IMG/VR virus record: IMGVR_UViG_2778261537_000010
Span: 1-4,687 of that record
From: a virus
Lineage: Duplodnaviria; Heunggongvirae; Uroviricota; Caudoviricetes
Strand: one strand, 5' to 3'
Length of the DNA stretch: 4,687 nucleotides
In this document: positions 1 through 4,687 of the stretch, piece by piece
Layout of the letters: each line of letters begins with the position of its first letter
Position numbering within the stretch: the stretch's first letter is position 1
Program-made: the position numbers and the translations under genes
The notes under the pieces: generated by a model
The model's input: the letters and a program-made list of their open reading frames with translations, nothing else
Told to the model about the DNA's origin: nothing
The model's database searches: none

Positions 1-813
1 CGCAAGGGGGCCACGGCTGCCAGCGGGTATATGCGCTGGGAAGGTGTCAGCGATGGCCTGAAGGTGACCGCCGGGAGCGTGATTCAGCGCGATGACCTGG
101 TTCAGTACATGGCAACTGCCGATGCAACCAGCTCCGGTGGTGTCCTGCGTGTGCCGATCACTTGCTCAACTACAGGCGCGGTCGGTAACGCTGACGACGG
201 TACGGCATTAATCCTGGTCACGCCGGTGAATGGTCTGCCGTCTTCCGGTGTTGCAGATACCCTGACTGGCGGATTCGATACTGAAGATCTGGAAACGTGG
301 CGCGCCCGCGTCATTGAGCGGTATTACTGGACGCCGCAGGGCGGGGCTGACGGGGACTATGTCGTCTGGGCTAAAGAAGTGCCCGGCATTACCCGCGCAT
401 GGACATACCGTCACTGGATGGGTACGGGAACTGTCGGTGTGATGATTGCCAGCAGTGACCTGATTAATCCCATTCCGGAAGAATCAACGGAAACGGCGGC
501 AAGACAACATATCGGGCCACTGGCCCCGGTGGCAGGCTCTGATTTGTATGTGTTCAGGCCGGTGGCACATACGGTGGATTTTCATATCCGCGTGACGCCG
601 GACACACCGGAAATACGGGCTGCCATCACCGCGGAGTTGCGTTCGTTCCTGCTGCGTGATGGTTATCCGCAGGGAGAACTGAAGGTATCGCGTATCAGTG
701 AGGCGATTTCCGGTGCGAACGGGGAATACAGCCATCAGTTGCTTGCACCGGCAGACAATATCTCCATTGCAAAAAATGAACTTGCGGTTCTGGGGACGAT
801 TTCATGGACGTGA
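1..813 (+). CDS. Baseplate J-like protein (Mu gp47 / P2 gpJ family), C-terminal part; 5' end lies upstream of the window
   Basis: The frame of the 31..813 ORF stays open back to position 1 (codons from nt 1: [11 protein letters not shown]...), so the gene begins outside the window. Sampled GC is high (41/60 over nt 301-360). The product is a soluble protein whose stop overlaps the start of the next gene (ATGGACGTGA, nt 804-813), which is typical of phage tail operons. Family assignment is from recalled similarity to baseplate J proteins and from gene order (J-like, I-like, fibre, chaperone), not from a search. Confidence 0.7.
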
Positions 814-1388
814 CAAACGATGATTACATCCGTCTGTTGTCGGCACTGCTGCCGCCCGGTCCGGCATGGTCAGCCAGCGATCCGGCGATTGCCGGTGCGG
901 CACCGTCATTAACCCGCGTTCATCAGCGTGCGGATGCCCTGATGCGGGAGCTGGATCCGCGCACCACCACCGAACTGATAAACCGCTGGGAGCGTCTGTG
1001 CGGCCTGCCGGATGAATGTATTCCCGCAGGGACACAGACCCTTCGCCAGCGTCAGCAACGGCTGGATGCGAAGGTTAATCTGGCGGGCGGCATCAATGAG
1101 GATTTTTATCTTGCACAGCTTGCTGCCCTGGGCAGACCAGACGCCACCATCACGCGATACGATAAAAGCACTTTCACCTGCTCATCGGCCTGTACTGACG
1201 CTGTGAATGCGCCGGAATGGCGGTATTACTGGCAGGTCAACATGCCAGCCGCCACCAACACCACCTGGATGACATGTGGCGACCCCTGTGATTCCGCACT
1301 GCGTATCTGGGGGGACACCGTTGTCGAATGTGTGCTTAACAAACTCTGCCCGTCGCATACCTACGTAATTTTTAAATATCCGGAGTAA
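804..1388 (+). CDS. Phage baseplate/tail protein, Mu gp48 / P2 gpI-like (DUF2313-type, YmfQ-like)
   Basis: 194-aa ORF with an ATG at 804 that overlaps the upstream stop by 10 nt. Its N-terminus ([23 protein letters not shown]...) matches my recollection of the YmfQ/gp48-like family found next to baseplate J in Mu-like prophages. It ends 3 nt before the tail fibre start. Confidence 0.7.
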
Positions 1389-1391
1389 TCC

Positions 1392-2024
1392 ATGCATCGT
1401 ATAGACACAAAAACCGCGCAGAAGGATAAGTTCGGCGCGGGTAAGAACGGTTTTACCCGTGGTAACCCCCAGACCGGCACGCCAGCCACCGATCTGGATG
1501 ATGACTACTTTGACATGTTGCAGGAGGAACTTTGCAGCGTGGTGGAGGCATCCGGTGCCAGCCTGGAGAAGGGGCGGCATGACCAGCTGCTTACAGCGCT
1601 TCGTGCGCTGCTGTTAAGCCGCAAGAATCCGTTTGGTGATATCAAATCGGATGGCACGGTGAAAACGGCTCTCGAAAACCTTGATTTGGGAGAGTTGGCC
1701 TTGGCAGGGGTAATGACAGGCCTTTTTGATACCAATGGCTATCTGAAACTCCCAGCAATTATTGATGGCAAGCGAAAAATTTTGATATTTCAATGGATGT
1801 CCATTTCAGCCAGTGCCACACCATCTTATTACAATTTACCTATCGCATGGCCAACCAGAGGGCTACATGCATTTGCTGTTGCTCAAACGGGGATTGATCA
1901 GTCAACCACTGCCTCTGCATTTATTGAAACTTCCTTGGTTAATCAACAAGTTTTTGTTAAGTGTATTAACTCTGCTGGGGCATTACAATCCCGTGGTGTT
2001 AGTTTATTTATGATTGGTATGTGA
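1392..2024 (+). CDS. Short tail fibre protein: conserved N-terminal anchor domain plus a divergent AT-rich C-terminal tip
   Basis: 210-aa ORF with a GGAG Shine-Dalgarno at 1381-1384, 7 nt upstream of the ATG at 1392. The N-terminus (MHRIDTKTAQKDKFGAGKNGFTRGNPQTGTPATDLDDDYFDMLQEEL...) is the recognisable conserved N-terminal region of enterobacterial prophage tail fibres. GC falls from 36/60 (nt 1441-1500) to 20/60 (nt 1921-1980) within the gene. It is followed directly by a chaperone gene. Confidence 0.7.
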   Translation: MHRIDTKTAQKDKFGAGKNGFTRGNPQTGTPATDLDDDYFDMLQEELCSVVEASGASLEKGRHDQLLTALRALLLSRKNPFGDIKSDGTVKTALENLDLGELALAGVMTGLFDTNGYLKLPAIIDGKRKILIFQWMSISASATPSYYNLPIAWPTRGLHAFAVAQTGIDQSTTASAFIETSLVNQQVFVKCINSAGALQSRGVSLFMIGM

Positions 2025-2433: not shown

Positions 2434-2461
2434 CCCTCTATCGCGCAATAACGATAGAGGG
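2434..2461. terminator. Candidate bidirectional intrinsic terminator between convergent genes
   Basis: Perfect 10-bp inverted repeat CCCTCTATCG (2434-2443) / CGATAGAGGG (2452-2461) with an 8-nt loop. It lies 8 nt after the chaperone stop (2423-2425) and 5 nt before the stop of the convergent - strand gene (2467-2469). Flanks are only moderately U-rich on either strand (ATTTATCAT on +, AATAATCTTATT on -), so terminator strength is uncertain. Confidence 0.45.
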
Positions 2462-2466
2462 ATTTA

Positions 2467-3783
2467 TCATCTCATTCTCTTGATAATAAAACCAAGTAAT
2501 ATGACAAATTGAACCAGAGAGCACAGGATTGAGAAATGGAGATACCTATAGTCAGATGCAGGGCTGACGAAGAAGTGAGGCACTGCAAATATGAAGCATG
2601 AGACGCCCAGCAACAAGCCTATACATTTTATACTGCTTCTGATAAAAATAAATGAAATTGTTGATACCAGAGCAAGAAGTAAATAAATCCATGGCAAGTA
2701 AATATAAGGCATAGATTTTACTGTTTCCACATATAAAGAGCTTGCCTTATTCGGTGTGAATGAGAACCCCCATTGGTTTTCAACACTTCCTTCCTGCACG
2801 ACCCATGCTGGAGTGCTACTACCAACCCTAAGCAATTCATTGAATGTGTCCAATCTTACTTTTAAGTAAGACAATGGGTTATTCTTTATTTCATAAATCC
2901 ATTTTTTACCAAGTGCATTGATTTCATCACTGTTTTCGGTTGTAAGATTGCCAGCCTTTGTATTGTAGAACATTAAATTGTTGCTCCCAGGCCAATAGAA
3001 AGACTTAACATTATTTTTGGTGATGCCGACTTTATCAACGATATATTCAGGAAGTAAAATATCTCCCTTTTCCACGCTCATACCAAGCAGATCATAGCTC
3101 TGTATATATTGAAGTGGTGATGTCTTGGTCACGGTAAGCGTGCTAACAATAAGCACAGGTAATGCTATTATTATTACGTTTGATACGATGTAAAAAGATA
3201 CTTTCTTGTATATGCTATTGCATTTTTTGTCATAATAAAACCACCATGCCATGATTACTAGTGCAACTGGAATGCCATTTGTTTTACTTCCGCATGCAAG
3301 CGCCATTATAAGAATCAGGATAATAAGCCTTGTTATAGACTGCTTGTTATTTTCGATGGAGTTGAATGTTATCCCAATGGACAAAATCATTAGTGATGAG
3401 AAAACGACGTCTTTCCATATCTGCGCGGTAATAAGAATAACTTGAGGTGCAGCTCCAGCTATCAAAATAGCAATAGATAAATAGCCTATTCTCTTATGTA
3501 AGGTTATAGATAAAAGGTAAAGACCAAGCCAATAACAAATCTGGTTTTGAATAAGAAAAATGCCAGGCCCAGAGTCGATTAAATTTAACTTGCTCCACCA
3601 CCATGCCATTATAACAGGTTGCCAAGAATTATAATGACCAGTAAGGGATTCATAATATTGAGTAGTGGAGTCAACGCTCATCCATCCAGGATAAAACGTC
3701 ATTGTACAAAACATCATGAATGCAAGTGATGTTAATATGTATATATATTTATAATTCAATTTACTATTTGACTTTAAGGGCAT
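2467..3783 (-). CDS. Polytopic inner-membrane protein of unknown function; candidate lysogenic-conversion enzyme (gtr-type / GT-C-like O-antigen glycosyltransferase is the leading hypothesis, by inference only)
   Basis: A 1317-nt ORF in roughly 35%-GC DNA (21/60 over nt 3301-3360); an uninterrupted frame this long in AT-rich sequence is strong evidence of real coding. The translation has about 8 hydrophobic segments in the first ~220 aa, with an acidic/aromatic loop after the first one (PGWMSVDSTTQYYESL). A ~150-aa hydrophilic region follows (TKTSPLQYIQ...SLYVETVKSMPY), then three C-terminal hydrophobic segments. Its size, AT-richness and convergent placement next to a tail fibre assembly gene resemble known prophage gtr(type) genes, but it could equally be a Wzy- or ligase-like protein or something unrelated. 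Confidence 0.6.
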   Translation of the reverse strand: MPLKSNSKLNYKYIYILTSLAFMMFCTMTFYPGWMSVDSTTQYYESLTGHYNSWQPVIMAWWWSKLNLIDSGPGIFLIQNQICYWLGLYLLSITLHKRIGYLSIAILIAGAAPQVILITAQIWKDVVFSSLMILSIGITFNSIENNKQSITRLIILILIMALACGSKTNGIPVALVIMAWWFYYDKKCNSIYKKVSFYIVSNVIIIALPVLIVSTLTVTKTSPLQYIQSYDLLGMSVEKGDILLPEYIVDKVGITKNNVKSFYWPGSNNLMFYNTKAGNLTTENSDEINALGKKWIYEIKNNPLSYLKVRLDTFNELLRVGSSTPAWVVQEGSVENQWGFSFTPNKASSLYVETVKSMPYIYLPWIYLLLALVSTISFIFIRSSIKCIGLLLGVSCFIFAVPHFFVSPASDYRYLHFSILCSLVQFVILLGFIIKRMR

Positions 3784-3927
3784 AAATACACTCTTTCAAC
3801 ATGTATAATAAAGTTATGAAATGTAGAGCATTATGCACCAATATTAGATTCTCTTCCATATATTAGTTAGAAATTGATGAGAAATATACCTCTCTGAACG
3901 GGAAAGTACAGAATTTTACAGTTGAAA
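3784..3927 (-). promoter_or_regulatory. AT-rich upstream region of the membrane-protein gene; probable promoter region, elements not resolved
   Basis: About 145 nt of very AT-rich non-coding sequence between the ATG at 3783 and the inferred IS terminus. On the - strand it contains -10-like hexamers (CATAAT, TATTAT, TATACA) and a weak Shine-Dalgarno (AAGAG) about 10 nt before the ATG. No confident -35/-10 pair could be assigned by eye. Confidence 0.25.
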
Positions 3928-4262
3928 TGACCTGCCCCCAGGATTAGATACAACTCTCAGTTAGTAACGTCGGAATCTTCATTCTCAGAATGACCCTTTC
4001 TCCAGCGCGCCGCAAATTCAGACGGTGTCTGATAATTCAGCGTGGAGTGCGGGCGGCACTCGTTATAATCCTGCCGCCAGTCATTAATGATTTTCCTGGC
4101 ATGAACGATATCGCTGAACCAGTGCTCATTCAGACATTCATCGCGAAATCGTCCGTTAAAGCTCTCAATAAATCCGTTCTGCGTTGGCTTGCCCGGCTGG
4201 ATTAAGCGCAACTCAACACAATGCTCAAAGGCCCATTGATCCAGGCAAGGGTTTCTGGTCTT
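3928..4262 (-). mobile_element. IS3-family insertion sequence remnant (one terminus plus the 3' part of the transposase gene); the 5' part of the element is missing
   Basis: Contains the C-terminal transposase fragment described in the next feature. On the + strand the sequence from 3928 (TGACCTGCCCCCAGGATTAGATACAAC) begins with TG and has a G/C-rich block like the terminal inverted repeats of IS2-group elements as I recall them. The upper boundary is approximate: recognisable transposase sequence is lost between roughly 4245 and 4280. Confidence 0.6.
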
Positions 4263-4277
4263 ATGGCAATAATAAAA
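3957..4277 (-). pseudogene. Truncated IS3-family transposase (OrfB), C-terminal ~100 aa only
   Basis: The - strand frame translates to ...LDQWAFEHCVELRLIQPGKPTQNGFIESFNGRFRDECLNEHWFSDIVHARKIINDWRQDYNECRPHSTLNYQTPSEFAARW..., the conserved C-terminal region of IS3-family transposases. The 84-aa ORF in the track begins at a TTG, and the frame stays open upstream only to an in-frame stop at 4278-4280. Residues before LDQWA do not look transposase-like, and the catalytic core and N-terminal half are absent. Confidence 0.7.
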
Positions 4278-4410
4278 TCATTACTGATACTGGCTGCGGT
4301 AGTTGAAACCGCAGACACGTCGTATGCAAGAACGTGCTGCGGTTGGCTGGTAAACTTCCGATAGTGCGAGTATTGAATGATTTCCAGCCGTTACTGATTT
4401 TACGTGCTAA

Positions 4411-4659
4411 TTAGTGAACAAACCACTCGTCAGCAGATTCCCAGGTATCTTTCAGAGTTTCCTGAACAAAAGTTTTAGCTGAATCTTTATCGGCGGTGCG
4501 CGTAACAGAAAGGCCATCGTTACTGGTGGCTTTTACGATCACCTCTACATCGTCATAACGCTTACTGATGCGTCGGGTTAATTCTTCCTTTAACGCATCC
4601 ACAGCACCGTTTGGCATTTTAGTCATTTTTTCTTTGGCTATGCAGATTTCAATACGCAT
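4411..4659 (-). CDS. DinI-family protein (DNA-damage-inducible protein I-like)
   Basis: 82-aa ORF ([35 protein letters not shown]...[17 protein letters not shown]) that shares the MRIE..IAK, DAL..EL.RRI, LSV, QET..WESAD.WFV pattern with E. coli DinI as I recall it. A GAGGG Shine-Dalgarno lies 6 nt upstream of the ATG on the - strand. It is too divergent from chromosomal dinI to use that symbol. Confidence 0.8.
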
Positions 4660-4672
4660 AAAAGTCCCTCTA

Positions 4673-4687
4673 TACTGTGTTTGTATA
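4673..4687. promoter_or_regulatory. Partial LexA (SOS) box cut by the window edge, upstream of the DinI-like gene
   Basis: The + strand reads TACTGT GTTTGTAT A at 4673-4687, i.e. the TACTGT half-site, an 8-nt spacer and the first base of the expected ACAG half-site, against the consensus TACTGT-N8-ACAGTA. The remaining bases lie beyond nt 4687. It sits about 12 nt upstream of the SD, where an operator would overlap the promoter. Confidence 0.3.

Follow-up and report, generated by a model that had tools for sequence, protein, structure and literature searches.

An ISSen4-like remnant beside an orphan membrane-protein gene: a probable recombination scar at a prophage module boundary

Genes and features of the locus

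The window (the whole stretch of DNA analysed, 4,687 nt of a viral record) carries a run of phage tail genes, an orphan gene for a polytopic membrane protein of 438 aa, a truncated IS and a DinI-like gene (Table 1). The loci with which it was compared are given by number (L001, L002 and so on) where they have to be told apart.

Table 1. Features of the window, in order of position
Feature	Position	Strand	Basis or remark
Baseplate J gene	ends 813	+	ORFs and Pfam matches
Mu gp48/YmfQ gene	804-1388	+	ORFs and Pfam matches
Short tail-fibre gene	1392-2024	+	ORFs and Pfam matches
Tail-fibre assembly gene (tfa)	ends 2425	+	ORFs and Pfam matches
Hairpin terminator after tfa	2434-2461		
Orphan gene for 438-aa polytopic membrane protein	2467-3783	-	Convergent with the tail-fibre assembly gene
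Conserved leader of the membrane-protein gene	3784-3860	-	Four-way alignment with L006, L007 and L035/L036
AT-rich spacer, 67 nt, from IS end to conserved leader	3861-3927	-	Lineage-unique
GAAA flanking the IS terminus	3924-3927		Presumed surviving half of a 4-bp target-site duplication
ISSen4-like IS remnant (IS3 family)	3928-4244	-	309/317 identical to full copies
Internal fragment of lambdoid side-tail-fibre gene (stfQ-like), 57 nt	4245-4301	+	98.2% identity
Microhomology of 8 nt, GGCTGCGG	4292-4299		Common to the tail-fibre fragment and the region downstream of dinI
3' region of the dinI-like gene, two terminator-like hairpins	4302-4410	-	RNA fold
DinI-like gene, prophage end adjoining prfC	4411-4659	-	Pfam DinI; annotated context in L001, L003 and L004

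NZ_AP027829.1 was the sole complete Escherichia coli genome with the window's arrangement (1/5426). There, the region forms the right end of an ~40-kb e14/SfV-like prophage that lies between yjjG and prfC and carries an integrase, Dsr1, ymfK/T/L, an HK97-type head and a Mu-like contractile tail. The right end of this prophage reads tfa, cargo gene, scar, dinI and then prfC. Both junctions of the scar described below are present in this independent complete genome. Thus, an assembly artefact is ruled out. In the same prophage, the anti-phage sirtuin gene dsr1 lies directly 3' of the integrase gene (L034:8665-12492).

The tail-fibre region of the window is mosaic, with breakpoints at ~1693 and 2419. 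In about 1600 E. coli prophages, the match to the window stops at ~1693, inside the short tail-fibre gene, and the match to the E. coli P470 prophage runs to 2419, at the end of tfa. P470, whose tail fibre and tfa are those of the window (93% identity), carries a 657-aa Oac-like acyltransferase and a frameshifted IS1 after tfa, by intS/argW (L030:9466-12290). Taking P470 together with general knowledge, the slot after tfa is a cargo site for O-antigen modification genes at which IS elements accumulate.

At the other end of the window, the DinI-like gene (Pfam DinI PF06183, 70.8 bits against a gathering threshold of 24.2; PHROG 189, E = 4e-31) belongs to a module conserved in more than 4000 E. 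coli records, of which the best matches (97.7%) were lambdoid prophages at prfC. On the minus strand, the two hairpins 3' of this gene are predicted at ~4389-4345 and 4344-4307 (RNA fold -32 kcal/mol, z = -2.5). A two-hairpin element of ~100 bp (window 4306-4404) occurs twice in L003 (6625-6723 and 9015-9113) and also twice in L004. In lambdoid prfC prophages, one copy follows tfa and the other precedes dinI, and the two copies bracket a two-gene cargo. Judged by its sequence, the element has the appearance of a bidirectional terminator placed at the borders of a cargo slot. The only match in an Rfam search was to CssrB at 4288-4341, below threshold (24.3 bits against a gathering threshold of 76; E = 0.063); it overlaps the second dinI hairpin and is probably meaningless. 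The DinI-like gene is preceded by a consensus LexA box (TACTGTGTTTGTATACAGTA, window 4673-4687), which is cut by the end of the window and continues in L001:12974-12993.

The ISSen4-like remnant and its two junctions

Window positions 3928-4244 aligned without gaps to the right end of ISSen4 (97.5% identical; L002:2506-2822, L028 and L029), with a blastn E value of ~1e-155, far above chance. The matching full copies are annotated in RefSeq as 'IS3-like element ISSen4 family transposase', and ISSen4 is an element that we take to be placed in the IS407 group of ISfinder. The right terminal inverted repeat, TGACCTGCCCCC, stands at the element boundary, begins 5'-TG and is identical in ISSen4 and in the remnant, as is the C-terminus of OrfB including its QNGFIESFNGRFR motif. 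An earlier note, made from the sequence alone, had described an IS3-family transposase here of which only about 100 C-terminal amino acids were left. These results confirm that description, as the last 95 codons of orfB are kept.

Both ends of the remnant were fixed to the base by alignment with reference elements. The outer terminus is exactly at 3928, where the alignments with L002, L028 and L029 all begin at TGACCTG. Because three independent full copies begin to align at this position, 3927/3928 is a genuine transposition junction. One match appeared to carry the IS past 3928 into 3902-3927; it was rejected as a chance similarity of the AT-rich flank, seen with one copy only. The full copy in L002 (2506-3726) is 1221 bp long with terminal repeats TGACCTGCCCCCACGATTAG and TGACCTGCTCCCCGTTGATTAG, and the full copies are flanked by 4-bp direct repeats (GACA in L002, GTTA in L028 and AAGC in L029). 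The terminus near 3928 had been called IS2-like in the earlier note. The terminus was correctly placed, but its affiliation was not: the NCBIfam model of IS2 TnpB (PRK09409) gave 20.9 bits against a cut-off of 597, and all DNA matches were to the ISSen4 family. Among the compared loci, only L001 has a genuine IS2, and that copy occupies another site.

The inner break of the IS lies exactly at 4244/4245. The remnant of 317 bp thus amounts to 26% of the 1221-bp element, and the left ~904 bp are absent. It comprises 29 nt of end sequence followed by the stop codon (3957-3959) and the last 95 codons of orfB. Of the DDE triad, only the E region is left and both catalytic aspartates are absent. Consistent with a C-terminal fragment, the Pfam rve_3 profile matched at positions 6-67 (106.5 bits) and the NCBIfam IS3 model at positions 305-368 of 369 (79.9 bits against a cut-off of 160). 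The remnant corresponds to positions 1-317 from the right end only, so that orfA, the frameshift site and the second inverted repeat are absent. No further ISSen4 sequence was found within the window, and the fragment is not part of an intact larger element. We infer that the remnant is neither mobile nor able to produce transposase, since it has a single inverted repeat and lacks both the catalytic aspartates and a promoter. It was already known as a feature of NZ_AP027829.1, where RefSeq annotates it as an incomplete integrase-core pseudogene.

Beyond the break, the earlier note had seen recognisable sequence lost at around 4245-4280. The IS does end there, but the sequence that follows can be recognised: positions 4245-4301 are a tail-fibre fragment, and matches to the dinI module begin at window 4292. 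The fragment is identical at 56 of 57 positions to an internal segment of stf in many E. coli prophages, for example L032:5001-5057, within a CDS of 3024 nt (3197-6220). It has the same strand and order relative to dinI as in the lambdoid prfC prophages L003 and L004. An extension of the IS to 4249 across a 6-nt gap, which a recurrence of GCAAG and a megablast match to 4250 had seemed to allow, was rejected because 4245-4301 is one contiguous tail-fibre fragment.

The join between IS and stf at 4244/4245 is without microhomology. A second illegitimate junction was located at GGCTGCGG by a three-way alignment of the window, the stf gene of L032 and the dinI side of L003. As read from these alignments, the region carries two illegitimate joins, with an e14/SfV-like tail arm on one side and the dinI end of prfC prophages on the other.

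The membrane-protein gene and its leader

The 438-aa membrane protein had no match in Pfam, NCBIfam or PHROG. Its AlphaFold model (pLDDT 89.9) had its best PDB matches exclusively among GT-C proteins (AglB, STT3, Pmt4, ALG3 and EmbC), and these matches were moderate (E ~1e-3, TM 0.40-0.46). A database search yielded 58 relatives, many of which are ~715 aa long and fused to a GT2 domain. The aspartate D38 in the first loop of the protein is invariant. Based on the modelled fold and on the GT2-linked homologues, the protein is likely to be a GT-C-type glycosyltransferase that modifies surface polysaccharide. No homologues were found in sequenced phages or viral contigs, and a contig scan with protein alignment gave only distant betaproteobacterial relatives. 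The gene is AT-rich (~36% GC) and rare in E. coli (1/5426 complete genomes).

Homologues of 43-45% identity in E. coli and Citrobacter lie at the end of O-antigen clusters, directly after genes for an EmrE-like protein of 118 aa and a GT2 protein of 270 aa. In these three-gene clusters, the GT2 stop codon is only 64 nt before the start of the membrane-protein gene. A GT2 protein, a small SMR/EmrE-like protein and a large GT-C-like protein are also the components of the ArnC, ArnE-ArnF and ArnT system. However, the window holds the third component only, and no sequence-family match to ArnT was obtained.

The window also resembles the gtrA-gtrB-gtrC/yfdGHI cassettes of SfV, SfII, SfX and the CPS-53 prophage of K-12. 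As in these cassettes, the gene is the last cargo after tfa, convergent and near the prophage end, and it specifies a polytopic protein that has GT-C-like fold matches and homologues tied to GT2. Three differences set it apart. The window lacks gtrA and gtrB, its protein falls outside the Pfam, NCBIfam and PHROG families, and the partners in the related clusters are the EmrE-like protein and the short GT2 protein rather than GtrA and GtrB proper.

The loci closest to the window (L006, L035, L036 and L007, 72-79% protein identity) are orphans too. None of them has a GT2 or flippase gene upstream, where instead there are 240-600 nt of non-coding or unrelated sequence. In L006, the gene follows the tfa of a different myovirus and is preceded by 616 nt without a GT2 or flippase gene. 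In L035/L036, it follows a window-like tfa, with no IS in L036, and has ~470 nt of non-coding sequence upstream, then the 3' end of a gene; the upstream flank L036:1-238 had no match in E. coli genomes. The gene in L007 has a chromosomal-looking context near fli genes and is 242 nt from a different, decayed IS3-family element. On the far side of that element, L007:2862-4223 encodes a 453-aa protein distantly paralogous to the membrane protein (tblastn E = 2e-6), and two members of the family thus flank an IS in this locus. Searches with tblastn found no GT2 or EmrE-like remnants in the window or in the closest loci.

The 77 nt before the ATG are conserved in L006, L007 and L035/L036, four loci without the window's IS. 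Invariant within this leader are the element TG(G/A)TGCATAAT and, 17 nt upstream, a -35-like TGGA(A/T)G, whereas neighbouring bases vary. In the window, the promoter-like pair lies on the minus strand and consists of the -35-like TGGAAG at 3858-3853, a spacer of 17 nt and the -10 hexamer CATAAT at 3835-3830, preceded by GTG; across the four-way alignment CATAAT is preceded by TG.TG. The predicted transcription start is at ~3823. The pair reached 8 of 12 consensus matches in a lenient scan, with a weak -35 (3/6). The IS end is 92 nt upstream of the -10 hexamer. A scan of the window for consensus promoters showed no enrichment (8 sites against 8.4 expected) and none of the sites was at the IS end; even at 8/12 matches, no pair that uses the IS end was found. 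On the evidence of sequence conservation, a candidate promoter of its own at ~3858-3830, undisturbed by the IS, most likely drives the membrane-protein gene.

Similarity to L036, L006 and L007 ends at ~3860, and that to L036 begins at window 3860. The earlier note had proposed a comparison with IS-free relatives as a means of learning what originally lay upstream of the gene. This comparison recovered the shared sequence 3784-3860, but the spacer at 3861-3927 was matched by NZ_AP027829.1 only among the 5426 E. coli genomes, even with sensitive blastn, and no metagenome or viral contig matched it exactly. The relatives share, a few hundred bases before the gene, a conserved element of ~76 nt (GGTTTTGAGTTGTTTTGCGCTAATTTTTTGCCCCAT...; L036:253-334, L006:245-320 and L007:2514-2590) that is absent from the window. 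A few E. coli genomes also have this element, close to intS or to genes for S24 peptidases.

Origin of the scar and the role of its neighbour

In our proposed reading, to which we give a probability of about 75%, recombination at the boundary between prophage modules left this feature as an inert scar. An ISSen4-like element transposed to a position 144 bp before the orphan GT-C-type gene, the last cargo after tfa in an e14/SfV-like prophage. The element later lost its left part of ~900 bp, and only the right 317 bp remain. It is broken inside orfB and fused to a 57-nt internal piece of stf, and this piece is fused, through the 8-nt microhomology, to the terminator region downstream of dinI at the end of prfC-integrated prophages. 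Two illegitimate joins would thereby have linked the tail and cargo arm to the arm of a prfC-type lambdoid prophage that runs from stf to dinI and att. They may have arisen by deletions in a tandem or hybrid prophage, or by recombination between phages.

The earlier note had also arrived at an IS that inserted upstream of the membrane-protein gene and was then partly deleted, and the position of the terminus and the missing left part bear this out. It had added that the event may have removed prophage genes or upstream partners such as gtrA and gtrB. The deletion demonstrably touches a tail-fibre gene, but not a gtr operon. Neither a full-length IS nor an empty site was found at the scar: with megablast and sensitive blastn, positions 3784-3927 matched only NZ_AP027829.1 among the 5426 E. 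coli genomes, and when metagenome and viral contigs were scanned for exact 24-mers, none matched. As no genome with the full IS or the empty site was found, we can only infer in what order the events took place and what the lost DNA contained.

A different origin for the IS fragment is conceivable, though we consider it rather doubtful. The fragment could be the margin of a block of DNA imported from a different enterobacterial species along with the membrane-protein gene, and 4244/4245 would then be the original illegitimate integration point of that block. The divergence of the remnant is what makes this idea attractive. The remnant differs by 2.2-2.5% from every ISSen4 copy sampled in 5426 E. 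coli genomes and 72,556 plasmids (the best, a plasmid copy, is 97.8% identical), whereas full, active copies are at least 99.8% alike among themselves. For this reason, it may already have been joined to the cargo gene when the two entered from a different species. Of the eight differences from the reference, two are non-coding and six are coding; four of the latter are synonymous and two non-synonymous, as expected if the sequence had diverged while the IS was functional. The rarity and low GC content of the gene, the unmatched upstream flank of L036 and the different IS3-family element beside the L007 homologue are also in keeping with import. However, eight substitutions are a small count, and a donor sequence was looked for and none was found. 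Moreover, L036 has the same gene directly after a window-like tfa and is IS-free. Thus, the gene was already phage cargo without the help of an IS.

It is improbable that the IS inserted in this prophage and that a later deletion then removed GtrA/GtrB-like flippase and GT2 partners and newly orphaned the gene. That the membrane protein has such partners is a functionally sensible idea, given the EmrE-like and GT2 neighbours and the GT2 fusions of its homologues. In serotype-converting phages and prophages (SfV, SfII, SfX and CPS-53), gtrABC occupies the slot after tfa near att, which would fit such a loss, and the far-side end-point of the deletion is unrelated DNA. Nevertheless, all four closest loci are also orphans with the same 77-nt leader, which makes the orphan state older than the IS event. 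Additionally, the tblastn searches with GT2 and EmrE-like proteins came back empty for these loci and the window, and the 64-nt spacing between the GT2 gene and the membrane-protein gene in the trios is incompatible with the conserved 77-nt leader. The removal of gtrA/gtrB-type partners by the event, which the earlier note had suggested, therefore lacks support. Partner genes may have been lost at some earlier time.

The earlier note had suggested that the gene may depend either on a promoter within 3784-3927 or on outward transcription from the IS. The first fits the conserved leader with its promoter-like pair; for the second, no promoter-like site that uses the IS end was found. Right ends of IS3-family elements (IS911, IS2 and IS3) carry a -35 that forms junction promoters, and the window's IS3-family right end likewise faces the downstream gene on the same strand; unlike those systems, the window has no pair at the IS end, and the gene's own motif is common to IS-free relatives. 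Expression from an outward promoter in the IS end, or by SOS-inducible read-through from dinI across the scar, is very unlikely, because, even though dinI, the IS remnant and the membrane-protein gene are all on the minus strand and dinI has a consensus LexA box, not even an 8/12 pair is seen at the IS end, two stable hairpins lie 3' of dinI, and the conserved promoter-like motif downstream of the IS end is common to relatives that have neither the IS nor dinI.

Truncated IS copies are common at prophage ends, and the scar is ordinary and inert. Its use is that of a landmark, in which two illegitimate joins, mapped to the base, link a tail-and-cargo arm to a prfC-type dinI end. The analysis also corrects the idea that the IS in the window orphaned its neighbour. 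In our opinion, that neighbour, an unclassified GT-C-like gene carried as single-gene phage cargo, is of more interest than the scar.

Under the recombination-scar reading, the gene was without partners before the IS arrived, and the lipid-linked sugar donor of its product would probably be supplied in trans. We offer, as a tentative idea, that the protein is a stand-alone GT-C-type transferase of an uncharacterised family that brings about serotype conversion; the GT2 and EmrE-like proteins of the host O-antigen cluster would make and flip the lipid-linked sugar that it uses. If this is true, the one-gene conversion module would be functional only where the host belongs to a particular, rare O-serogroup. 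Such a dependence would explain why the sole complete genome with the prophage gene is among the few that carry the partner genes.

Of the 5426 complete E. coli genomes, only six have a paralogous trio of EmrE-like, GT2 and GT-C-like genes (L018:3765-6359; NZ_AP027829.1 904070-906663), and the sole complete genome with the prophage gene is among them. The draft genome GCA_012117455.1 likewise has both the trio and the prophage gene. This co-occurrence suggests that the phage gene relies on partner enzymes encoded by the host. In both carriers, the complete NZ_AP027829.1 and the draft GCA_012117455.1, the host O-antigen cluster thus has likely partner enzymes.

The state of the membrane-protein gene differs among its carriers. 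In GCA_012117455.1, the contig ends inside the gene, at window 3723. In NZ_AP027829.1, the gene is split by a 1331-bp IS2 (L001:9659-10989) with a 5-bp target duplication at window 2689-2693, whereas in the window it is intact.
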